From a virus: a stretch of DNA of 24,417 nucleotides. The notes beneath the pieces were generated by a model that was not told the DNA's origin, did not search any database, and saw nothing but the letters and a program-made list of their open reading frames with translations. The stretch lies in the UHGV virus genome UHGV-0187105. One strand, written 5' to 3'. Below, one piece after another: positions 13,783 to 24,417 of the stretch. The position numbers and the translations under genes were made by a program. Within the stretch, counting starts at the first letter, position 1. The number at the start of each line of letters is the position of its first letter.

Positions 13783-14535
13783 CTATCGTGTCACTTTTTG
13801 CAACTGTAACTCTGCGAATGCTTCTTCCTGCCAGCACTTTGTTACCAGTTTATCAATGACGTCTGCATATCCTTTGTACCACTGATAATCCGTCAGGTCT
13901 GGTACCAGCTTCTGGACATGATGCCGCGCCAGTGTGGTTGGTAAACGGCTAAACCGGTTTCCATTGCAACGCCCACAAATCTTATAAACAGGCGTGCCAT
14001 GAAGCCGGGTCCTTTTTTCATCCAGGACAATACCTTTACCCTTACACCCTCTGCACGCTGTGCTGACTTCTCCCTTACCATGACAATGCTGACACAGTTC
14101 CTTCACCCACTCTTCCTTGATAACAGATTCCCCGCTTCTGGAGTGTTTTACCACCTCGCGCAATACATCATGAAATCCAGTACCAGCACAATGCTCACAG
14201 CGAGCCTTACTTGCCGCAGACCTGGAATAATCAGCAAAGGCAAAATTCACAAGGTAAGGGATGATCTGTAACCGGATTTCTTCACTCAATTTGTTCAATG
14301 TCGGGTTATTCAGTGCCATCGCGTAATTGAGCAGACCTTCAATCGCAAACTGAGGGTCCTGAACGCCAACTTTTGCCAGGAATAAGGCAAACCCAAGCGG
14401 TGCTTTCGACTGCACCATCCCCTGCGCAGCCATTACATCCGTAATTGTTAAACCACCCGAGCCTGTCGCCGGTGCGTCATCGCTCAGTTTTGGAGATTTC
14501 GGGGAGTAATATTTCGGTAAGGCTTCAAGGTTCAT
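13783..14535 (-). CDS. Late-gene antiterminator Q (QuuQ-type, zinc-finger repeats)
   Basis: 250 aa with four CxxC-type motifs (CEHCAGTG, CQHCHGKG, CRGCKGKG, CGRCNG), immediately upstream of the promoter/terminator/lysis-cassette arrangement. I recall the family as the 250 aa Qin-prophage QuuQ type. Confidence 0.7.
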   Translation of the reverse strand: MNLEALPKYYSPKSPKLSDDAPATGSGGLTITDVMAAQGMVQSKAPLGFALFLAKVGVQDPQFAIEGLLNYAMALNNPTLNKLSEEIRLQIIPYLVNFAFADYSRSAASKARCEHCAGTGFHDVLREVVKHSRSGESVIKEEWVKELCQHCHGKGEVSTACRGCKGKGIVLDEKRTRLHGTPVYKICGRCNGNRFSRLPTTLARHHVQKLVPDLTDYQWYKGYADVIDKLVTKCWQEEAFAELQLQKVTR

Positions 14536-14548
14536 GCTCGTTCTCCAC

Positions 14549-15544
14549 TTACGCCAGTACGCCTATTGCCAGCGCACGATCGATAAAACGAAATATCAGC
14601 TCCAGCTGGGAACCATACTTCTCTTCAAATGCCACGGTATCCGCATGCAGCTCGTCGTGATGCTTTCTGCACAAAGGCAACACAAAGAGGTCATGCGCTT
14701 TTGTACCCATTCCACCCTGACCGTGGCCTATCAGGTGGTGGGGATCATCAGCAGGCTTTCCACAACATGCACACGGCTGCGTCTTAACCCAGCGCGTGTA
14801 CTTTTCATTAACCCAGCGGCGACGTTTGGGGCGTAACATAAAAGACTCCGGCGACTCCGGATCCACTTTCAGCGCCAGCACCTTTTTCGCCTTATCCTGG
14901 ATGATGCAGGTGGCAGGAACCGAAGGCACAAGGTCACTTTCCCGGGTAACAGACGGCACAACAGGCTTCGGTAATCTCAGTGCCTTACGGGCTGCACTTT
15001 CCGGTAAGGCATCCGCCAGATCATTACGAATCAGCCACCAGCACAGTTCCGGCATTGTCACAACATGACTGTCATCAAAACCGAGATCCCGACGCACAAC
15101 AGACAACACCCAGCGGGCACTGTTATCCGTTGCCATTGATTCCAGCCGTTCCGTGAACTGATCGCGCAGCTGGTTATCGCAGTGCCAGCACAAACGGATT
15201 GCGCCCGGAGCGTGTCGCATTGTTGTCATGTTCTCGCTGTGCCAGTCGGAATGAGGCCACTGGCAGCCTTTTTCACGAAGTAACCAGCTTTCAAGACATT
15301 CCACGCCACCAGCACGATGGATCACTGCCTCATTGCGGAACACGGCCCGAACGGCAGGATCATCCGCCAGCGGTTGTGATGCCGCCGGAACGGCACCACT
15401 GGCGAAAGATGAATAACGTTCCGGCTCAGGCTCCAGCAAGACACGCCCCTGCATAAACAAGGGCATCAGCTCTGAACCTGGTCTGAACAATACGATCCCC
15501 ATACGCGGGGCAATTTCAGGGGTCAGTAGTGCTCTCACGGTCAC
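14549..15544 (-). CDS. DUF968-like protein (YdfU-like) with C-terminal HNH-like Cys/His motif
   Basis: 331 aa; C-terminus PCACCGKPADDPHHLIGHGQGGMGTKAHDLFVLPLCRKHHDELH; position upstream of Q is typical for this family in lambdoid prophages (from memory). Track start is GTG. Confidence 0.6.
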   Translation of the reverse strand: MTVRALLTPEIAPRMGIVLFRPGSELMPLFMQGRVLLEPEPERYSSFASGAVPAASQPLADDPAVRAVFRNEAVIHRAGGVECLESWLLREKGCQWPHSDWHSENMTTMRHAPGAIRLCWHCDNQLRDQFTERLESMATDNSARWVLSVVRRDLGFDDSHVVTMPELCWWLIRNDLADALPESAARKALRLPKPVVPSVTRESDLVPSVPATCIIQDKAKKVLALKVDPESPESFMLRPKRRRWVNEKYTRWVKTQPCACCGKPADDPHHLIGHGQGGMGTKAHDLFVLPLCRKHHDELHADTVAFEEKYGSQLELIFRFIDRALAIGVLA

Positions 15545-15545
15545 C

Positions 15546-16376
15546 TCAATGAACGGTATCGAGCAGCTTTAACAGCTCAGGGAATCGGGATTCGAAGAAA
15601 TGCGGCTGCGTCTCGCGCGGATTTGCGGGACTGGTGATGTTCTTGCCGAACATGCAGCCTTTCGCCGTCAGCGACCAGAATTTTTTGATGTTGTTAATCG
15701 CGGTACGGCTGTATCGTTCGCGCTGTTCGACGATCCCCAGCTTCACCATCTGGTGATATGCCTGATTAGCCGTAAGGCGGATACCATACTGCTTCAGCAG
15801 TGCACTCAATGATAGCGTAGGGCGGCTTGAGCCATCGAGTGCATCAGCAGGAGCATCAATGGCATAGCGCGGTGCCAGATTCGGTAAGCCAACAGCCTCC
15901 TGGTGTTTCTGACAGGCACCAAGCACAGATGAGTTAGACAGGTTTAACTCCCGACGCATAAAGTCCAGCAGAATCACACCAGCCTGCATCTTGTCAGCAG
16001 CCTGTCCGGATAATTTTTCCGGTGCGCTGGTTACCATGTCGAAAGTACGGATCACCTTCAGATGGAATGACGGGCTGATCCACATTGCATAGGCATACAC
16101 CAGTTCTTTGCAGACATACGTCCCCTGGTTATTTCCGCCACGAATAACGTTAACTGGCTCTATATTGACCGAGTTGCAAATCTGCAACTCGCTTATTAAA
16201 CGTTCAGTTTGCTCATTGCGGAGCCAGAATGCAGGCTTATGCTTATCCAGAGAACCGGCAGCCCTGTGCAGATCGTTCAGGCTGTAACGACCATAAGCAT
16301 CACGACGAACTTCAATACCATCAATGACCATCAGATTATTCATACTTCGTTTCTCCTCTTGATCAGGCGGCTGCAC
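15546..16376 (-). CDS. KilA-N domain protein (antirepressor-like)
   Basis: N-terminal region NNLMVIDGIEVRRDAYGRYSLNDLHRAAG...KPAFWLRNEQTERLISEL fits the KilA-N pattern. Track start is GTG at 16376; an ATG at 16343 with GAGGAG about 9 nt upstream is more likely and removes the overlap with rusA. Confidence 0.6.
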   Translation of the reverse strand: MQPPDQEEKRSMNNLMVIDGIEVRRDAYGRYSLNDLHRAAGSLDKHKPAFWLRNEQTERLISELQICNSVNIEPVNVIRGGNNQGTYVCKELVYAYAMWISPSFHLKVIRTFDMVTSAPEKLSGQAADKMQAGVILLDFMRRELNLSNSSVLGACQKHQEAVGLPNLAPRYAIDAPADALDGSSRPTLSLSALLKQYGIRLTANQAYHQMVKLGIVEQRERYSRTAINNIKKFWSLTAKGCMFGKNITSPANPRETQPHFFESRFPELLKLLDTVH

Positions 16377-16752
16377 CCGCCGTTTTCTCGTACTTACTGA
16401 TAGTGATCTCGACCTTCCCTTTCGGGATAACCGGTCCCCACTCCACCAGCATTCTTTTCACCTGACTGTCGTCTTCCCACACACCCGCGTGGGTCAGGGC
16501 GTCAAACAGCGCCTTGTTATAGTTGTCCAGATCGCGGATCCGGTTATCCGGAGGAAACAACACGATCTCCACTGAAGCAGGTGCCGACGTTGGTTTCGGC
16601 AGACGACGTAACTGCTCAACTATTGCTGCACACGCCGCGCTCTGGAATTTGCGCCCCGCTGCGCTTATCAGGCTCTTACCAGCAAACGCCCCTTTGTTGG
16701 GGTGTCGCCAGTACGTGTTCACGCTGGGCGGAAAAGGCAGTATTAGCTTCAT
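16363..16752 (-). CDS. rusA: Holliday junction resolvase RusA
   Basis: 129 aa; motifs LPFPPSVNTYWRH and RIRDLDNYNKALFDALTHAGVWEDDSQV match my recollection of E. coli RusA ([36 protein letters not shown]). Confidence 0.85.
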   Translation of the reverse strand: MKLILPFPPSVNTYWRHPNKGAFAGKSLISAAGRKFQSAACAAIVEQLRRLPKPTSAPASVEIVLFPPDNRIRDLDNYNKALFDALTHAGVWEDDSQVKRMLVEWGPVIPKGKVEITISKYEKTAGAAA

Positions 16753-17075
16753 ACTTTCAGGCCCCTCTCATGTAACCAGTGGGCTGCACGCAGCCTGGCG
16801 TTTTCCTCACCGGCAAGCAGTGAGCGGATAATCCCGACCGCCTCGCTGTCGTCGTCCTTCACCGCGGTATGAAGAGTGATACCACGGGCCACGCCACGCT
16901 TTATCGTGATGACGCCTTTTTTCTCCAGTGCTCTAAGATGCTCCACCGCTGCATTCACTGAACGGTATCCCAGCATGGTTGCCACCTCCTGATTGGTTGG
17001 CGGGAAGCCACGTTCTTTCTGATAAGAAATCAGCATATCCAGCACCTGCTGCTGGCATTGAGTTAACGTCGTCAT
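16749..17075 (-). CDS. LexA-N-terminal-like winged-helix DNA-binding protein (no protease domain)
   Basis: 108 aa; QQQVLDMLISYQKERGFPPTNQEVATMLGYRSVNAAVEHLRALEKKGVI resembles the LexA N-terminal DNA-binding domain ([49 protein letters not shown], from memory). Confidence 0.55.
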   Translation of the reverse strand: MTTLTQCQQQVLDMLISYQKERGFPPTNQEVATMLGYRSVNAAVEHLRALEKKGVITIKRGVARGITLHTAVKDDDSEAVGIIRSLLAGEENARLRAAHWLHERGLKV

Positions 17076-17758
17076 GCCGCCATCTCCCTGACAAGTTTTT
17101 CTGCCTGCTGGCGAACCTGCGCCAGAAAGGCCTCACCACATGCCTCAAGTTCATCGCGCCCGATGTAGCTGATTGCCGGTCCCTTCCAGGTCTTGTCGAA
17201 AACAGCAATAGCACCAGCGAAGAACGCTCCTGTCGGCACCTGCTTCTCGTCCTTCGGGATAAACCAGGCAGGCAGTTCAAAACCAATACGCCCGCGAATA
17301 AAAGCAATATGGTCCGCATCTTCCGGCCACCACACTTCGCTGGTGGCAGCTTTGATCAGGAAAACATAGCGCCCGCCCTTATCACGCATGGCACTGGCAT
17401 GTTTCATGATGTAACGCATGCCGGTGATGTATTGCCCCTCATGCTGACTGGCGCGGCTGTATGGGGGATTACCAAAGGCAGCACCTTTAAGCTCCGCAAG
17501 ACGTTCTGACCAGTCATGCGCCAGCGCGTTGTCTTCCGCCGTGTAATACGCGGCACATTTGGCGTTATCACCGTCAGTGAACAGATCCAGAACAAACGGG
17601 CCAAACAGGGTGTTAATTCCCCAGAAAATGTTGTCCGGCGTGCGCCACTGATCGCCCACTTCCTTCAGTTCATGGGCTGGTTTGTTCCGCAGTTCCACCA
17701 GCGTCTGGCAATATTTATTACTCATTAAGCCCCCACGTAATTCCCTGACAGATACCAC
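17072..17758 (-). CDS. DNA N6-adenine methyltransferase (phage Dam-type)
   Basis: Contains the NPPY catalytic motif (AFGNPPYS). Track start is GTG at 17758; ATG at 17725 overlaps the upstream gene stop (TAATG) and is the likely start. Confidence 0.75.
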   Translation of the reverse strand: MVSVRELRGGLMSNKYCQTLVELRNKPAHELKEVGDQWRTPDNIFWGINTLFGPFVLDLFTDGDNAKCAAYYTAEDNALAHDWSERLAELKGAAFGNPPYSRASQHEGQYITGMRYIMKHASAMRDKGGRYVFLIKAATSEVWWPEDADHIAFIRGRIGFELPAWFIPKDEKQVPTGAFFAGAIAVFDKTWKGPAISYIGRDELEACGEAFLAQVRQQAEKLVREMAA

Positions 17759-18219
17759 TCTTCACCCGATGCAGCGCGCTTGCTGCTTTTCCGTAAGCAC
17801 CGCTCACGACGCGCCAGAAAATTGTTTCGTTCTGGCTGGGAGTGGCTTTCACGGAATGCCGCCATCCACACGGTTGCAGCACGACGGTATAAGCCCCTGG
17901 ACTCCAGTTCTTCCGCCTGGCGGGTCAGGCACAAAATCACACGGGGATCGTTAGTGCCGACATAGAAATTGCGCACAGGTCTGGTTTCACGAACTGGTTG
18001 TGGTTCCGGTTCCTGCGCTCTCTCAGTCAGGCGCGGGAAATGTCTGCGTGTATCTCCTTCACAACGGTGAGCCACACGCCCACTCTGACGTAACTTGCTT
18101 GCTGACTGCAGAACTCGCTGCCGTGAGTAACCTGCAAAAGCATCCGCAATGTCTCCGGAAGTACACCCCGGATGGGCTTCAATGAATTTCTGAACGTCAT
18201 TCAACAGACTCATGATCAC
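17725..18219 (-). CDS. Two-domain regulator: N-terminal winged-helix-like region plus C-terminal PerC-like motif
   Basis: C-terminal QAEELESRGLYRRAATVWMAAF resembles the conserved GL(W/Y)RRAA..W core I recall for PerC/Pch-family activators; the N-terminal half looks like a winged-helix domain. Likely start ATG at 18213. Confidence 0.4.
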   Translation of the reverse strand: MIMSLLNDVQKFIEAHPGCTSGDIADAFAGYSRQRVLQSASKLRQSGRVAHRCEGDTRRHFPRLTERAQEPEPQPVRETRPVRNFYVGTNDPRVILCLTRQAEELESRGLYRRAATVWMAAFRESHSQPERNNFLARRERCLRKSSKRAASGEEWYLSGNYVGA

Positions 18220-19157
18220 CCCCTGAATCCTGCCGGGATCTGGCTGTAGTCCACGTTGTCGTAACTGGCTTTGAAGTACGGGTCTTCGCGTTTTTCGGTG
18301 TACGTGCTGACGGACGGCGATAAGCGCAGGGAAAGCTCATCCCATTTTTCCCGCAGCTTCGACGGGCTGAGCACGTTACGGCACCAGAACGGATCGCGAC
18401 TGACGCGGCTGTACATCTCGCAGATTTGTTTATGAGTACGACCATCCTGCACACACATCAGGCGAATTTCGTTTGCCCAGGCTGTCCAGTTCGGTTCTTT
18501 GGGACGAACCACCTCGCCGTCACATTCGGCGGCCTGCTCGTACAGGGCGATGATTTTTTTCCAGAGCCACTGTGCGCAGGTCAAATCATCCTGCGTTCCC
18601 CACTGGCGCTTTTTAGGGCTGAATACAACCGCATCAGGATGGCGAGTTAAAAACTCCTGTTCAGCCGTCTGCGTGTCCGGTTGCGAAGCGTCCGGACGAG
18701 AAGTTTTTTTATCTGACGGATCATGTTTTGATTTTACTGACGGATCCCCGCCAGATTCTGACGGGTGAAAAACCGCTTTTTTGCCAGATTTCGACGCATC
18801 AAATTTTGACGGGTCAGATTTTGATGCGTCAGATTTTGACGGGTCAGAATCTGACAGTTGAGAAAATGCCGCTGCCTGAAGCTTCGCAACGTTAAGCTGA
18901 TAAACATTCGACGCATTGCGGTTACCCTGGCGACGCGCCTTACGCGTTAACCAGCCTTCTGCTTCCAGCCGTGCGATAGCCGTTCTGACGGTACTCATCC
19001 CCGCGCCAATCTGGCGGGCAATGGTTTCAATTGATGGCCAGCACACACCTTCGTCATTACTGAAATCAGCTAGGCGGGCCATAATTGCCACGCTGGATAA
19101 TTTCATGCCTGACGCAGCGCAACCATCCCATACATAGCCGGTTAATTTAGTGCTCAT
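18216..19157 (-). CDS. Replication initiator, O-like (N-terminal HTH; iteron array inside coding sequence)
   Basis: 313 aa at the position of lambda O, after the cro-proximal genes; N-terminal winged-helix-like domain; the central linker SDPSKSDASKSDPSKFDASKSGKK is encoded by tandem 15-bp DNA repeats, as the lambda ori iterons are inside O. Confidence 0.55.
   Translation of the reverse strand: MSTKLTGYVWDGCAASGMKLSSVAIMARLADFSNDEGVCWPSIETIARQIGAGMSTVRTAIARLEAEGWLTRKARRQGNRNASNVYQLNVAKLQAAAFSQLSDSDPSKSDASKSDPSKFDASKSGKKAVFHPSESGGDPSVKSKHDPSDKKTSRPDASQPDTQTAEQEFLTRHPDAVVFSPKKRQWGTQDDLTCAQWLWKKIIALYEQAAECDGEVVRPKEPNWTAWANEIRLMCVQDGRTHKQICEMYSRVSRDPFWCRNVLSPSKLREKWDELSLRLSPSVSTYTEKREDPYFKASYDNVDYSQIPAGFRG
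18713..18855. repeat. Iteron-like tandem direct repeats (candidate origin of replication)
   Basis: At least six degenerate 15-bp units of form TGAYGSRTCAGATTT (e.g. cgacgcatcaaattt, tgacgggtcagattt, tgatgcgtcagattt, tgacgggtcagaatc) in phase with the O-like reading frame; short T-rich tract at 18700-18711. Confidence 0.6.
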
Positions 19158-20291: not shown

Positions 20292-20388
20292 ACGCCCTCC
20301 AAACTAAGTTTTATTAGATGCTAATTACAAATCTATCTTTGGTCAATAAAAACTAAGATTACTTAGCAATTCAAGAAATGGTGCTCCT
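20292..20388. promoter_or_regulatory. Divergent immunity control region (OR-like operators with candidate pR)
   Basis: Repeated ACTAAG-core motifs (aaactaagtttt at 20301-20312; palindrome CTAAG-atta-CTTAG at 20353-20366). Candidate rightward promoter on the minus strand: TTGACC (20346-20341) - 17 nt - TAGCAT (20323-20318). Confidence 0.55.
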
Positions 20389-21015
20389 ATGGAAACGGTT
20401 GGTCAGCGTATAAAAGCTCTGAGAAGAGTTACCGGAACGTCCCAGAAAGAATTGGGTAAATTTTGTGGAGTAAGCGACGTTGCTGTGGGGTACTGGGAGA
20501 AAGACATCAATACCCCTGGTGGGGAGGCACTTTCGAAATTAGCGAAGTTCTTCAATACGTCAATAGATTACATTCTTTATGGTGCTGAGTTTGAAGGCAA
20601 ACTCGTCACAAACATGCGCAGAGTTCCTGTAATATCGTGGGTTCAGGCTGGGCAGTTTACTGAGTGCAGGGCAGCAGAAGTGTTTAGTGAAGTGGACAAG
20701 TGGGTAGATACATCATTAAAGATTGGTGATAACTCATTTGCATTAGAGGTTAAAGGTGACTCCATGACTAACCCTAATGGCCTCCCAACAATACCAGAAG
20801 GCGCAACAGTGATTGTAGATCCAGATGCAGAACCTCGTCATGGAAAAATAGTCATCGCTCGACTTGATGGAACAAACGAAGCTACAGTTAAAAAATTAGT
20901 CATCGATGGCCCTCAAAAGTTTTTAGTGCCATTAAATCCTCGGTATCCCAACATCCCTATCAATGGTAATTGCCTTATCATTGGTGTAGTCAAAGGAGTT
21001 CAATACGAACTCTAA
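20389..21015 (+). CDS. CI-type phage repressor (N-terminal HTH, C-terminal S24 LexA-like autopeptidase)
   Basis: 208 aa; N-terminal HTH (GTSQKELGKFCGVSDVAVGYWE); C-terminal domain with GDSM serine motif and a downstream Lys (VKKL) consistent with the Ser-Lys dyad of self-cleaving repressors. Confidence 0.85.
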   Translation: METVGQRIKALRRVTGTSQKELGKFCGVSDVAVGYWEKDINTPGGEALSKLAKFFNTSIDYILYGAEFEGKLVTNMRRVPVISWVQAGQFTECRAAEVFSEVDKWVDTSLKIGDNSFALEVKGDSMTNPNGLPTIPEGATVIVDPDAEPRHGKIVIARLDGTNEATVKKLVIDGPQKFLVPLNPRYPNIPINGNCLIIGVVKGVQYEL

Positions 21016-21100
21016 GACCTCTCTTCTCTAACTAAGGCACCGAACTAAGAAAAGTTTGGTGTTTTCTCTTGCCATAATAACTAAGTTAAGTTAGATTTTA
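21016..21100. promoter_or_regulatory. Second cluster of operator-like ACTAAG motifs immediately 3' of the repressor gene
   Basis: taACTAAGg (21030-21037), gaACTAAGaaaAGTTt (21043-21058), taACTAAGttaAGTTag (21079-21094): same core as the cro-proximal sites, two with an AACT-N6-AGTT inverted arrangement. Confidence 0.4.
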
Positions 21101-21221
21101 TATCAAAGATAACGAACAGGCAGGACGCCCACGAAGTAGCCGCCTGGGGCATATGAAGTCCAGGATGATTCGTTGAGTCATGTTGTGCCACCAGGCACTC
21201 ATGTTAAAGCAGGTGTATGAA

Positions 21222-21497
21222 ATGAAAGTCCAGATTTTAAACAATAACTGTGAAGTCGTTTGGTCATACGACATAGCCGCCCCTGTAGATCAGAGCGGCG
21301 ATAGCTGGACCAATGGGAAACATCAGATTATGGCTGGAGTTGTGTTCTCTTTACGCCGTGCTTTGGAACAGGCTGAAGTATTTCCATCAGACCCTGAATG
21401 GAAATGGCCTTTTTCTATTTGTCCAAATTCGGAGAGCACATTTCAGAAAATTGGTCAGAAAGTCGCACTCGAAGAGCATCAGCCAACTGTTTCCTGA
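21222..21497 (+). CDS. Hypothetical protein at the rex-equivalent position downstream of the repressor gene
   Basis: Track ORF 21180..21497; in-frame ATG at 21222 has AGGTG 6 nt upstream and is the likely start (91 aa). 3' end overlaps a minus-strand ORF by 83 nt. Confidence 0.4.
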   Translation: MKVQILNNNCEVVWSYDIAAPVDQSGDSWTNGKHQIMAGVVFSLRRALEQAEVFPSDPEWKWPFSICPNSESTFQKIGQKVALEEHQPTVS

Positions 21498-21660
21498 TTT
21501 TTTCAGGTAACTCGTCGGCATCGCAGAAACAACAACGCTCGATCATGTTGAAAGCCGATTCGTAGAACTGTTTCTGCTGAGTGTCGCTGAGACAGGAAAA
21601 GAGCGACGTTACGATGATTTTATTAATTGCATTATCAAGTTCTTTTTCATCAAAAGTCAT
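21415..21660 (-). CDS. Hypothetical acidic 81 aa protein, antisense-overlapping the previous ORF
   Basis: ATG at 21660 preceded by AAGGAAAA about 8 nt upstream; balanced protein-like composition; transcribed toward the repressor gene. Confidence 0.4.
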   Translation of the reverse strand: MTFDEKELDNAINKIIVTSLFSCLSDTQQKQFYESAFNMIERCCFCDADELPEKIRKQLADALRVRLSDQFSEMCSPNLDK

Positions 21661-21779
21661 TTGATTTTCCTTTTATGTATACGGGCTTAAAAGGATACCA
21701 CCGAGCCTGAAGTGGTGAAAAGACAGGCACATAACAGCTAAGTATTTTCAACCAGAGAGAATCCTTAGCGTTGTGGTGA

Positions 21780-22090
21780 ATGCGGCTCAGCGCACGCGGG
21801 TTAAGGTTGAGGCTGACAGTCGACCTTCTGTGGATACCCACCCGCCTGGTGTGCAACCTTCGCCAGGCACCGGGAGGCACCCGGCACCACAACTTTATGC
21901 TGTGTGTAGTCCTGGCGGTACCAGTTTGTACCCTTGCTTCCGGCTGGTACCGTCCTTTTTACAAAACAGAGAAGAGCATCACCGGACGACGGGCTCATAA
22001 CCCAATCCATCCGGGCGGCAGTCACCGCAGGTGTTCTTCTCTGTTTTGTGGAGAAACTAACCGACCTTGCAGGGTCGATATGATGAGGAG
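21780..22090 (+). promoter_or_regulatory. GC-rich, hairpin-dense non-coding leader of the early-left operon (candidate cis-acting antitermination or attenuator RNA)
   Basis: No credible ORF; successive hairpins (tcagc...gctga 21786-21815; gcctgg...ccaggc; ccggg-aggca-cccgg), an internal terminator-like hairpin, then a 17/18-bp long-range stem acaaaacagagaagagca (21961-21978) / tgttcttctctgttttgt (22032-22049) just before the RBS of the first gene. Confidence 0.35.
21916..21960 (+). terminator. Terminator-like hairpin plus T-run inside the leader
   Basis: 9-bp stem cggtaccag / ctggtaccg with a 19-nt loop followed by tccttttt on the plus strand. Confidence 0.4.
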
Positions 22091-22097
22091 CAGCAAA

Positions 22098-22460
22098 ATG
22101 GCTAGCGAACGCAGTACTGATGTGCAGGCATTTATCGGGGAGCTGGACGGCGGCGTATTTGAAACCAAAATCGGCGCAGTTCTCAGTGAAGTCGCTTCCG
22201 GTGTGATGAACACGAAAACCAAAGGTAAGGTCTCACTCAACCTGGAAATCGAACCATTTGATGAAAACCGTGTGAAAATCAAACACAAACTCTCATATGT
22301 TCGCCCGACTAACCGCGGGAAAATTTCCGAAGAAGACACCACCGAAACGCCGATGTATGTCAATCGCGGTGGTCGCCTGACTATTCTGCAGGAAGACCAG
22401 GGACAATTACTGACTCTTGCCGGTGAACCTGACGGAAAACTCCGCGCAGCAGGTCATTAA
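22098..22460 (+). CDS. Hypothetical early protein (first gene after the leader)
   Basis: ATG at 22098 with GAGGAG about 9 nt upstream; the upstream part of track ORF 21780..22460 reads as translated non-coding sequence. Confidence 0.55.
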   Translation: MASERSTDVQAFIGELDGGVFETKIGAVLSEVASGVMNTKTKGKVSLNLEIEPFDENRVKIKHKLSYVRPTNRGKISEEDTTETPMYVNRGGRLTILQEDQGQLLTLAGEPDGKLRAAGH

Positions 22461-22525
22461 TATCGTTCTTAATTAACCGATTATTTATCTCATCACTGAA
22501 TATCTTAATATAGTGAGGACTTATT

Positions 22526-23350
22526 ATGTCTCAAAACTTAGACGCAACCGCATTTAATCAAATCCATGCCCTTATTTCTGCTCAGGGTGTTAATGAAATT
22601 ATCAGTAAGATTGGTGCCGATGCTGTGGCATTGCCTGAGAATTTCCGCATTCATGATCTGGAAAAATTTAATTTAAATCGCTTCCGTTTCCGTGGTGCGC
22701 TTTCCACTGCCAGCATCGATGACTTTACCCGTTATTCTAAAGATCTTGCAGATGAAGGCACCCGCTGCTTTATCGATGCTGATAATATGCGTGCCGTCAG
22801 TGTGCTTAACCTGGGTACTATTGATGAACCAGGTCACGCAGATAACACCGCCACACTCAAACTGAAAAAGACAGCACCGTTCTCTGCTCTGTTGTCTGTT
22901 TACGGCGAGCGTAACTCCCAGAAGTCACTGGCAGAATGGATTGAAGACTGGGCCGACTACCTTGTGGGCTTTGATGCTAATGGTGACGCTATTCAGGCAA
23001 CAAAAGCGGCTGCGGCTGTCCGTAAAATCACGATTGAAGCAAACCAGACCGCTGATTTTGAAGATAATGACTTCAGCGGCAAACGCTCCCTGATGGAGTC
23101 TGTCGAAGCGAAGACCAAAGACATTATGCCAGTGGCATTTGAATTTAAATGCGTTCCGTTTGAAGGTCTGAAAGAACGTCCGTTTAAATTACGCCTCAGT
23201 ATTATCACTGGCGATCGTCCTGTACTGGTTCTACGCATTATTCAGCTGGAGGCGGTGCAGGAAGAAATGGCTAACGAATTTCGTGATCTGCTTGTTGAGA
23301 AATTCAAGGACAGCAAAGTAGAAACCTTTATTGGTACTTTCACCGCCTGA
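22526..23350 (+). CDS. YfdQ-like protein (DUF2303-like), early-left operon
   Basis: 274 aa; GTGAGGA SD 6 nt upstream of the ATG; size and neighbourhood match my recollection of CPS-53 prophage YfdQ followed by YfdR and YfdS. Confidence 0.55.
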
Positions 23351-23477
23351 TTTCATTACTGCAAATGCCCCTGCGGGGGAATTTATGGAAACGTAATTAA
23401 CTCAATAATCGCCGGATGGTGAGGACTTCCTTTTACCAGAATTCAGCGCGGTGCAGCGCATATACGTGGAGAACAAA

Positions 23478-24014
23478 ATGTCATTTATTAAAACTTTTTC
23501 CGGGAAGCATTTTTATTATGACAGGATAAATAAAGACGACATCGATATTAACGATATCGCGGTTTCCCTTTCAAATATCTGTCGCTTTGCCGGTCATCTT
23601 TCGCACTTCTACAGCGTCGCCCAACATGCGGTTCTTTGCAGCCAGCTGGTGCCGCAGGAATTTGCTTTTGAAGCATTAATGCATGATGCAACAGAAGCGT
23701 ATTGCCAGGACATTCCCGCACCACTGAAACGCCTTCTTCCTGACTATAAACAAATGGAAGAAAAAATAGACGCCGTAATCCGTGAGAAATACGGGTTACC
23801 CCCAGTTATGAGTACGCCCGTGAAATATGCCGATCTCATCATGCTGGCAACCGAACGCCGCGATCTCGGGCTTGATGATGGCTCTTTCTGGCCTGTACTG
23901 GAAGGTATCCCGGCAACAGAGATGTTCAACGTGATTCCACTGGCTCCGGGCCATGCCTACGGGATGTTTATGGAACGCTTTAACGAGTTATCGGAGTTAC
24001 GCAAATGCGCATGA
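23478..24014 (+). CDS. HD-domain phosphohydrolase (YfdR-like 5'-deoxynucleotidase)
   Basis: HD motif (EALMHDATEAY) with upstream His (RFAGHLSHFYSVAQH). Track start is GTG at 23451; ATG at 23478 with GGAGA 6 nt upstream gives the 178 aa product I recall for YfdR. Confidence 0.6.
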   Translation: MSFIKTFSGKHFYYDRINKDDIDINDIAVSLSNICRFAGHLSHFYSVAQHAVLCSQLVPQEFAFEALMHDATEAYCQDIPAPLKRLLPDYKQMEEKIDAVIREKYGLPPVMSTPVKYADLIMLATERRDLGLDDGSFWPVLEGIPATEMFNVIPLAPGHAYGMFMERFNELSELRKCA

Positions 24015-24367
24015 ATGTTTTCGAAATGGAAGGGTTTCTTCGTGGGAGATGTGTACCGCGAGATCTGAAAGTAAATGAAACAGATGCTGAATACCTAGTG
24101 CGTAAATTCGATGCGCTTGAAGCTAAATGTGCAGCACAGGAAAACAAAGTAATACCAGTGTCAACTGAACTGCCACCAGCAAATGAAAGTGTTTTGTTAT
24201 TCGATGCTAACGGAGAAGGCTGGCTAATTGGCTGGCGTTCTCTCTGGTACACCTGGGGACAAAAAGAAACCGGAGAATGGCAGTGGACATTTCAGGTCGG
24301 GGACCTTGAAAACGTCAATATCACTCACTGGGCAGTAATGCCAAAAGCACCGGAGGCTGGAGCATAA
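24005..24367 (+). CDS. YfdS-like protein (DUF551-like), Trp-rich C-terminal domain
   Basis: 120 aa; overlaps the HD-protein stop; C-terminus GWLIGWRSLWYTWGQKETGEWQWTF; size matches my recollection of CPS-53 YfdS. Confidence 0.5.
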   Translation: MRMNVFEMEGFLRGRCVPRDLKVNETDAEYLVRKFDALEAKCAAQENKVIPVSTELPPANESVLLFDANGEGWLIGWRSLWYTWGQKETGEWQWTFQVGDLENVNITHWAVMPKAPEAGA

Positions 24368-24417
24368 TGACCACTTTTACCGACAAAGAACTGATTAAAG
24401 AAATTAAAGAGCGTATC
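24368..24417 (+). CDS. 5' end of the next early-left gene (partial, runs off window)
   Basis: ATG at 24368 overlapping the previous stop (TAATG); translation MTTFTDKELIKEIKERI...; open to the window end. Confidence 0.4.

Follow-up and report, generated by a model that had tools for sequence, protein, structure and literature searches.

What does a temperate phage gain from the yfdPQRS genes carried in its early-left operon? The question is raised by the phage DNA UHGV-0187105, a stretch of 24,417 nucleotides (hereafter referred to as the window), whose last 2.3 kb (22098-24417) encode YfdP, YfdQ, the HD-domain protein YfdR and YfdS. This region forms an accessory segment within the early-left (pL) operon of a temperate Escherichia coli phage that resembles SfV. 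A reading of the letters alone, i.e., the sequence-only reading, had identified these genes as CPS-53-like and had proposed that an early deoxynucleotidase remodels nucleotide pools, either as a defence against superinfection or as a counter-defence; our analysis partly supports this reading, in that the identity of the genes is right while the proposed mechanism is weakly supported. We favour a different role, which we judge to stand evenly balanced between right and wrong: the module of this SfV-like phage would produce early operon proteins, repressed by cI in the lysogen, and binding of YfdR to the host initiator DnaA would lower initiation at oriC as a form of host takeover.

The yfdPQRS module is already catalogued, sequenced thousands of times and partly characterized, and as a genome-scan result the present finding re-identifies a known module; it is real but ordinary. 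Three observations are added here, i.e., the conservation of the HD catalytic residues in 65 homologues, the independence of the yfdP-yfdQ pair from yfdR, and the finding that structural models of YfdQ and YfdP match no solved fold.

Identity and distribution of the module

The genes yfdP, yfdQ, yfdR and yfdS are four tightly packed open reading frames (ORFs) on the plus strand, and a fifth, yfdT, exits the window from position 24367 onwards (ORF list); the start at 22098 given by the sequence-only reading is the exact first position of yfdP. The four proteins exhibit 99.2, 98.5, 97.8 and 95.8% identity, respectively, to those of CPS-53 in E. coli K-12 MG1655, with equal lengths, and the suggested identity of the HD protein as YfdR, flanked by YfdQ and YfdS, is thereby borne out. 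The K-12 DNA is colinear and 96.8% identical across window positions 22079-24417, and the orthologous proteins with shared order and orientation place the cluster among those of the CPS-53 yfdPQRS(T) type. The ratio of nonsynonymous to synonymous substitution rates (dN/dS) over yfdP-yfdS relative to K-12 is 0.09, indicating that these genes are under purifying selection. The description of the encoded proteins as Trp-rich was found to apply to YfdS, with seven Trp in 120 residues (5.8%), and not to YfdQ (two, 0.7%), YfdR (one) or YfdP (none).

Genes of this module sit in most E. coli genomes, in Shigella serotype-converting phages and in Stx2c phages. When positions 21000-24417 were searched by megablast, 3,336 (~61%) of the 5,426 complete E. 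coli genomes gave a match, in 826 cases over at least 80% of the query, and the matched features are annotated as yfdP, YfdQ family protein, yfdR (5'-deoxynucleotidase), ‘phage protein’ and yfdT. When the whole window is considered, Escherichia phage vB_EcoM-689R6 covers 88% at 97% identity and Shigella phage SfV covers 68% at 96% identity, while the 2.3-kb region alone is 98.9-99.1% identical at the DNA level to SfV (orf32-orf28) and SfIV, and 97% identical to Stx2c-converting phages. A near-identical prophage in NZ_CP195454.1 displays the order cI, small ORF, frameshifted ORF, yfdP, yfdQ, yfdR, a yfdS-like gene, yfdT, helix-turn-helix (HTH)/xis, int, tRNA-Thr and proA, and the layout of SfV matches it (cI, small ORF, yfdP-like genes, xis, int); in close relatives the phage is integrated at tRNA-Thr beside proA. 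The placement of the genes in an early-left operon, as previously suggested, is upheld by this arrangement, in which a lambdoid-type regulatory module is joined to a virion module with an HK97 head and a contractile tail.

Proposed repressor control of the early-left operon

All five AACTAAG heptamers of the window are located in the two intergenic regions flanking cI, with copies at 20302 and 20351 between cro and cI, and at 21030, 21043 and 21079 on the 3' side of cI. A promoter scan placed a sigma-70-like promoter (TTGCCA-17-TAGATT) at 21069-21097, 54 nucleotides beyond the cI stop codon, although taken alone this match is no better than chance. The third heptamer of the 21030-21085 cluster sits within the spacer of this candidate pL promoter. 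Judging from their positions, the repeats are probably half-sites of the repressor operators (OR and OL), and the pattern would make 21030-21097 the OL/pL region. Since the candidate pL is overlapped by the repeats that also occur in the cro-cI region, the operon should be off in a lysogen.

This expectation bears on the suggestion that the module is a prophage-encoded defence against superinfection, or an anti-defence device, acting through nucleotide depletion. Such a role draws on an analogy with nucleotide-depleting defence systems only, on the early-left location, which is a frequent site of lambdoid accessory genes, and on the very wide distribution of the genes among the complete E. coli genomes. 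It is at odds with an operon that is apparently repressor-controlled and hence silent in lysogens, and YfdR would act on deoxynucleoside monophosphates (dNMPs), whereas known depletion systems target deoxynucleoside triphosphates. A search of the PADLOC-DB v2 profiles at E <= 0.01 matched no family for any of six proteins, i.e., YfdP, YfdQ, YfdR, YfdS and the products of the two small ORFs beside cI. Moreover, deletion of yfdQ in K-12 was reported to abolish the lysis zone of a T1-like phage, which was restored by a plasmid, the opposite of what a defence gene would bring about (preprint 10.1101/413146). The defensive role put forward by the sequence-only reading is therefore disfavoured by the apparent repressor control, the PADLOC null result and the yfdQ-deletion phenotype, the counter-defensive role is unsupported, and we consider both very unlikely.

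Proposed binding of DnaA and inhibition of host initiation

The sole mechanistic study of these genes is that of Noguchi and Katayama 2016 (PMC4776307), in which multicopy yfdQ and yfdR together with yfdS or yfdT suppressed over-initiation mutants and inhibited initiation in the wild type. In the same study, purified K-12 YfdR was shown to bind DnaA in a manner dependent on Phe46 of domain I, it acted as a moderate competitor of DiaA and DnaB for DnaA, and extracts inhibited oriC replication in vitro; the authors proposed a host-takeover role in the ancestral phage, akin to that of lambda P, and named the SfV homologues (PMC4776307). The window YfdR is identical to K-12 YfdR at 174 of 178 positions, the differences being R16K, D23V, Q92R and E170D (window residue first). 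By virtue of this similarity, it would be expected to bind DnaA and to inhibit initiation at oriC together with YfdQ and either YfdS or YfdT.

The favoured mechanism may thus be envisaged as follows. In the lysogen, cI would shut off the operon at operators overlapping pL, and upon induction or infection the Yfd proteins would be made early. YfdR, a predicted HD metal-dependent phosphohydrolase with an intact site, would then bind domain I of DnaA at the Phe46 surface which is used by DiaA and DnaB and, with YfdQ and YfdS or YfdT, would lower host initiation at oriC, an outcome comparable to that of lambda P binding to DnaA. The DnaA steps have been demonstrated for the 98%-identical K-12 protein under overexpression only, and from these we infer the role in the phage life cycle. 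Hydrolysis of dNMPs by YfdR may take place in addition, even if the affinity of the K-12 enzyme is reportedly low.

Several points weigh against this role. In K-12, deletion of yfdQRST left both initiation and hydroxyurea resistance unchanged, and it is conceded in that study that the overexpression effect is possibly an artefact (PMC4776307). The proposed control from pL is a sequence pattern only, and the depositors of the SfV genome annotate putative terminators between cI and orf32. A phage-infection phenotype of these genes was not found in the literature searched. Finally, YfdR homologues occur in phages whose hosts possess a divergent DnaA and the catalytic residues of YfdR are conserved, which suggests that the selected function is enzymatic rather than the binding of E. 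coli DnaA.

YfdR as an HD-domain phosphohydrolase

Profile searches support the HD relationship claimed for YfdR, with matches to PHROG 318, annotated as ‘deoxyribonucleoside 5' monophosphate phosphatase’ (E 2.7e-110), and to the solved HD protein Atu1052 (2gz4; E 3.3e-14). The curated cut-offs of the YfbR-like 5'-deoxynucleotidase family were missed in both PF12917 (25.0 bits, cut-off 25.9) and the NCBIfam equivalog NF003009 (20.4 bits, cut-off 122), as was that of HD_3 (17.3 bits, cut-off 22.5), while an HDxxE...D...P.P.K block is common to YfdR and YfbR in an alignment. The residues expected of an HD metal-dependent phosphohydrolase (H50, H69-D70 and D119, plus E73 and D78) are all present. 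Across an alignment of 65 full-length representatives of 39-69% identity, H50 is invariant, and conservation is at least 90% for each of R36, F37, H69, D70, E73, D78 and D119. By these sequence features YfdR is a true HD phosphohydrolase whose site is intact, and its subfamily is separate from that of YfbR.

The family is very large, with 22,995 representative clusters retrieved at E <= 1e-3 by an exhaustive HMMER search, and it extends to phages of bacteria from many phyla, including those of Bacillus, Caulobacter, Rhizobium, Vibrio, Pseudomonas and Stenotrophomonas. Because the enzyme site is conserved family-wide and homologues are found in phages of such diverse hosts, catalysis is probably the function for which the family was originally selected, to which DnaA binding may have been added in a lineage-specific manner.

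These data bring into play a second explanation, in our view possible rather than probable, according to which YfdR is mainly an early nucleotide phosphohydrolase which, during lytic growth, alters deoxynucleotide pools or removes particular nucleotides that are damaged, modified or used in signalling, DnaA binding being a side effect of overexpression. The conserved active site, the size and spread of the family and the motif block shared with the characterized YfbR are all consistent with it, as is the annotation of YfdR as a dNMP phosphatase by both PHROG and RefSeq. Conversely, the nucleotide affinities of K-12 YfdR lie far below YfbR's, and its function is termed ‘elusive’, as relayed by PMC4776307 from Zimmerman et al. 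2008, and the scores below the PF12917 and NF003009 cut-offs imply that the real substrate may not be dNMPs. Remodelling of nucleotide pools in lytic growth is possible on the basis of the intact active site and of phage T5 Dmp as a non-homologous precedent. Homology between YfdR and T5 Dmp was considered and ruled out (BLASTP E 3.5), T5 Dmp itself being without a Pfam match.

YfdQ, YfdS and the yfdP-yfdQ pair

The assignment of YfdQ to the DUF2303/YfdQ family is upheld by a full-length match to PF10065 (E 5.9e-91; score 304.9 bits, cut-off 26.6; residues 8-272). That of YfdS to DUF551 (PF04448) passed marginally, at 22.2 bits against a cut-off of 22.0 over residues 50-117, and YfdS also matches PHROG 583 (E 1.1e-82).

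Diverse YfdQ loci were drawn from GenBank phage records, as a scan of IMG/VR yielded only loci of 99% identity. Among seven distant loci, in which YfdQ exhibits 26-59% identity, a YfdP homologue was found directly upstream in six by tblastn, and in the seventh the upstream gene is annotated as YfdP-like by the depositors, while YfdR is present in phiNP only. The phage records with YfdQ comprise those of Escherichia, Vibrio, Stx2a and Xanthomonas phages, and the records with YfdR those of phages of Bacillus, Caulobacter, Rhizobium and others. The pairing of yfdP and yfdQ in distant phages, with YfdR restricted to phiNP, indicates that yfdP-yfdQ is the conserved core and that yfdR is an add-on in enterobacterial lambdoid phages. 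In Stx2a phage P13374 yfdP is split, with two small ORFs (4091-4437 of locus L086).

The neighbours of the pair are often DNA-metabolism genes. In Vibrio phage 64E30.1 a DnaQ-like exonuclease gene and a single-stranded DNA-binding protein (SSB) gene lie on either side, and in P13374 the pair comes after Gam-RecT-Exo-SSB. PDB entry 9o7m, entitled ‘YfdQ Protein’ and matching the sequence encoded at 22526-23350, contains a single sequence in 36 chains, pointing to a YfdQ homo-oligomer of very large size; no publication on this entry was found. AlphaFold2 (AF2) models of YfdQ and YfdP were of moderate confidence (pLDDT of 74 and 75, respectively) and returned no whole-fold match in the Foldseek copy of the PDB, which does not include 9o7m. 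From these models, YfdQ appears to adopt a fold unlike that of any solved structure outside the YfdQ family.

The neighbourhoods also raise the question of whether yfdP-yfdQ could be an unrecognized replication, recombination or repair cassette that replaces the recombination (Rec) module, with YfdR and YfdS as unrelated passengers. The retention of the pair in Vibrio, Xanthomonas, Acinetobacter and Citrobacter phages that lack yfdR (phiNP excepted), its position in 64E30.1 and P13374 and the suggested large oligomer would fit such a role. Replacement is contradicted by the co-occurrence of the pair with complete Rec modules, both in P13374 and in ArgO145 (the latter according to PMC12315714), and Zheng et al. 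reach the same conclusion (PMC12315714); we therefore regard this possibility as unlikely. A search for fold or profile similarity of YfdQ to known single-strand annealing proteins (SSAPs; Rad52/Red-beta/Erf, RecA-like Sak4 and gp2.5) found none, and YfdQ as a hidden recombinase was rejected on the grounds that it co-occurs with full Rec modules (P13374; PMC12315714).

A further proposal, which may be combined with the favoured role of YfdR and which we put forward as doubtful, is that yfdP-yfdQ constitutes an ancient, self-contained phage cassette in which YfdQ has a novel fold and is perhaps a large homo-oligomer; it would have an undescribed function in DNA replication or the handling of DNA ends and, in the SfV/CPS-53 lineage, would co-operate with YfdR against DnaA-dependent host initiation.

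Recombination genes and Chi sites

The sequence-only reading had stated that none of the usual recombination genes appear in the window. This holds for the early-left operon, among whose ORFs Pfam, NCBIfam and PHROG scans detected no Exo, SSAP, Gam/anti-RecBCD or SSB; it does not hold for the window as a whole, since the early-right/nin region encodes a RusA Holliday-junction resolvase (16363-16752, minus strand), which is its sole recombination-related gene. In the complete related prophage of NZ_CP195454.1, where the operon continues with yfdT, HTH/xis and int, no Exo, SSAP, SSB or anti-RecBCD gene is annotated.

Chi sites (GCTGGTGG) are strongly over-represented, with 13 located between 1736 and 24180 against 0.92 expected, a number not reached in any of the shuffled sequences. 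Twelve of them lie on the minus strand, which is the ‘top’ strand of the lambda convention because the terminase, head and tail genes are on it, and thus have the orientation which PMC12315714 defines as active for RecBCD that enters from the right end; one is inactive. The related complete prophage carries ten active and two inactive sites. Zheng et al. 2025 (PMC12315714) define a ‘no Rec module, high Chi’ class of lambdoid phages by at least eight active and at most six inactive Chi sites and by the lack of Exo, SSAP, SSB and anti-RecBCD in the early-left operon, and on both counts the window belongs to this class. The early-left operons of the class often carry yfdP, yfdQ and an HD phosphatase, which are unlikely to be hidden recombinases because they are also found alongside full Rec modules (PMC12315714). 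Judging from the number and orientation of its Chi sites, the phage probably relies on host RecBCD. If the takeover of DnaA by YfdR and this dependence on Chi and RecBCD, instead of on a recombinase of its own, are both true, they would represent a second, widespread way in which lambdoid phages control the replication and recombination of the host.

Comparison with known systems

Among known systems, CPS-53 (KpLE1) possesses the same genes in the same order, and the K-12 proteins are those which have been studied experimentally (PMC4776307). It differs from the window phage in that its immunity region has been lost, so that it lacks cI, pL and the first ORFs of the early-left operon, and in that it is located at argW with a different integrase and the TorI excisionase, whereas relatives of the window phage lie at tRNA-Thr. 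SfV and SfIV are functional phages in which the near-identical module is followed by xis and int; however, genes for O-antigen modification lie beyond int in both, and their immunity and nin regions are in part different from those of the window.

The LLS functional type (Zheng, Casjens, Davidson, Amundsen and Smith 2025, PMC12315714) resembles the window in its yfdP/yfdQ/HD-phosphatase genes, in the lack of Exo, SSAP, Gam and SSB, and in its Chi content, with one site per 1.86 kb and 20 of 23 active, compared to one per 1.9 kb and 12 of 13 in the window. The window differs in its virion module, which is of the contractile-tail type, and the main text of PMC12315714 makes no mention of SfV-type phages.

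E. coli YfbR shares with YfdR the HD superfamily, the motif block and the RefSeq product name, yet the two are only 24% identical in a largely unreliable alignment, with a PDB phmmer E-value of 0.88 in addition to the family scores below cut-off. The remaining two likenesses are functional analogies only. Phage T5 Dmp is a pre-early deoxynucleoside-5'-monophosphatase whose sequence bears no similarity to that of YfdR. As discussed in PMC4776307, lambda P likewise binds DnaA and thereby inhibits initiation by the host, but it is a helicase loader which binds DnaA domain III, whereas YfdR binds domain I.

Feature coordinates and neighbouring genes

The coordinates of the features discussed are collected in Table 1. 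The yfdR start listed is the ATG used in RefSeq relatives, the mechanically called ORF beginning at a GTG at 23451.

Table 1. Features of the window and distant YfdP-YfdQ pairs (positions in the window unless a locus is named)
Feature	Position	Strand	Remarks
yfdP	22098-22460	+	120 aa; PF27127 on homologues in precomputed annotations; no family in local Pfam
yfdQ	22526-23350	+	274 aa; DUF2303/YfdQ family (PF10065)
yfdR	23478-24014	+	178 aa; HD-domain phosphohydrolase (predicted); motif residues R36-F37, H50, H69-D70, E73, D78, D119
yfdS	24005-24367	+	120 aa; Trp-rich, DUF551 C-terminal; 10-nt overlap with the yfdR stop
yfdT, first 17 codons	24367-24417	+	cut by the window end; MTTFTDKELIKEIKERI, compared to MTTFTNKELIKEIKERI in K-12
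cI-type repressor	20389-21015	+	HTH_3 and Peptidase_S24 (Pfam E 9.2e-28 and 1.1e-10); ‘LexA family protein’ in RefSeq relatives
Candidate OL/pL	21030-21097	+	three AACTAAG repeats and sigma-70-like promoter; just 3' of cI; putative function
Early-right operon (opposite-strand genes)	13783-19157	-	HTH_36 initiator-like, PerC, Dam, LexA-DNA-binding-domain protein, RusA, KilA-N, DUF968/HNH, Q; cro, CII (CP76)-like and DUF4222 genes also on this strand
HTH_36 initiator-like protein	18216-19157	-	early-right operon
YfdP-YfdQ homologue pairs	L084 3040-4328; L085 3074-4328; L087 3396-4822; L088 3456-4789; L089 3573-4828; L090 3504-4747		Vibrio, Xanthomonas, Acinetobacter and Citrobacter phages; HD gene usually absent

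In the early-right operon, no recognizable helicase loader of the lambda-P/DnaC type and no helicase was found. Since YfdR blocks the contact between DnaA and DnaB, the manner in which DnaB is recruited by the phage is of interest.

Two convergent ORFs, at 21222-21497 (plus strand) and 21415-21660 (minus strand), overlap by 83 nucleotides and strongly match PHROGs 3195 and 3311, respectively, both of unknown function; RefSeq relatives annotate the plus-strand ORF only. The minus-strand gene, enclosed by the early-left operon, could be a ‘moron’ which is expressed in the lysogen. A scan of the whole window against Rfam matched no RNA family. The stretch at 21773-22083 (plus strand) is missing from K-12 CPS-53, whose homology begins at window position 22079; it is G+C-rich and annotated as a ‘frameshifted hypothetical’ in relatives, and comprises ORFs of 75 and 49 aa in the window.

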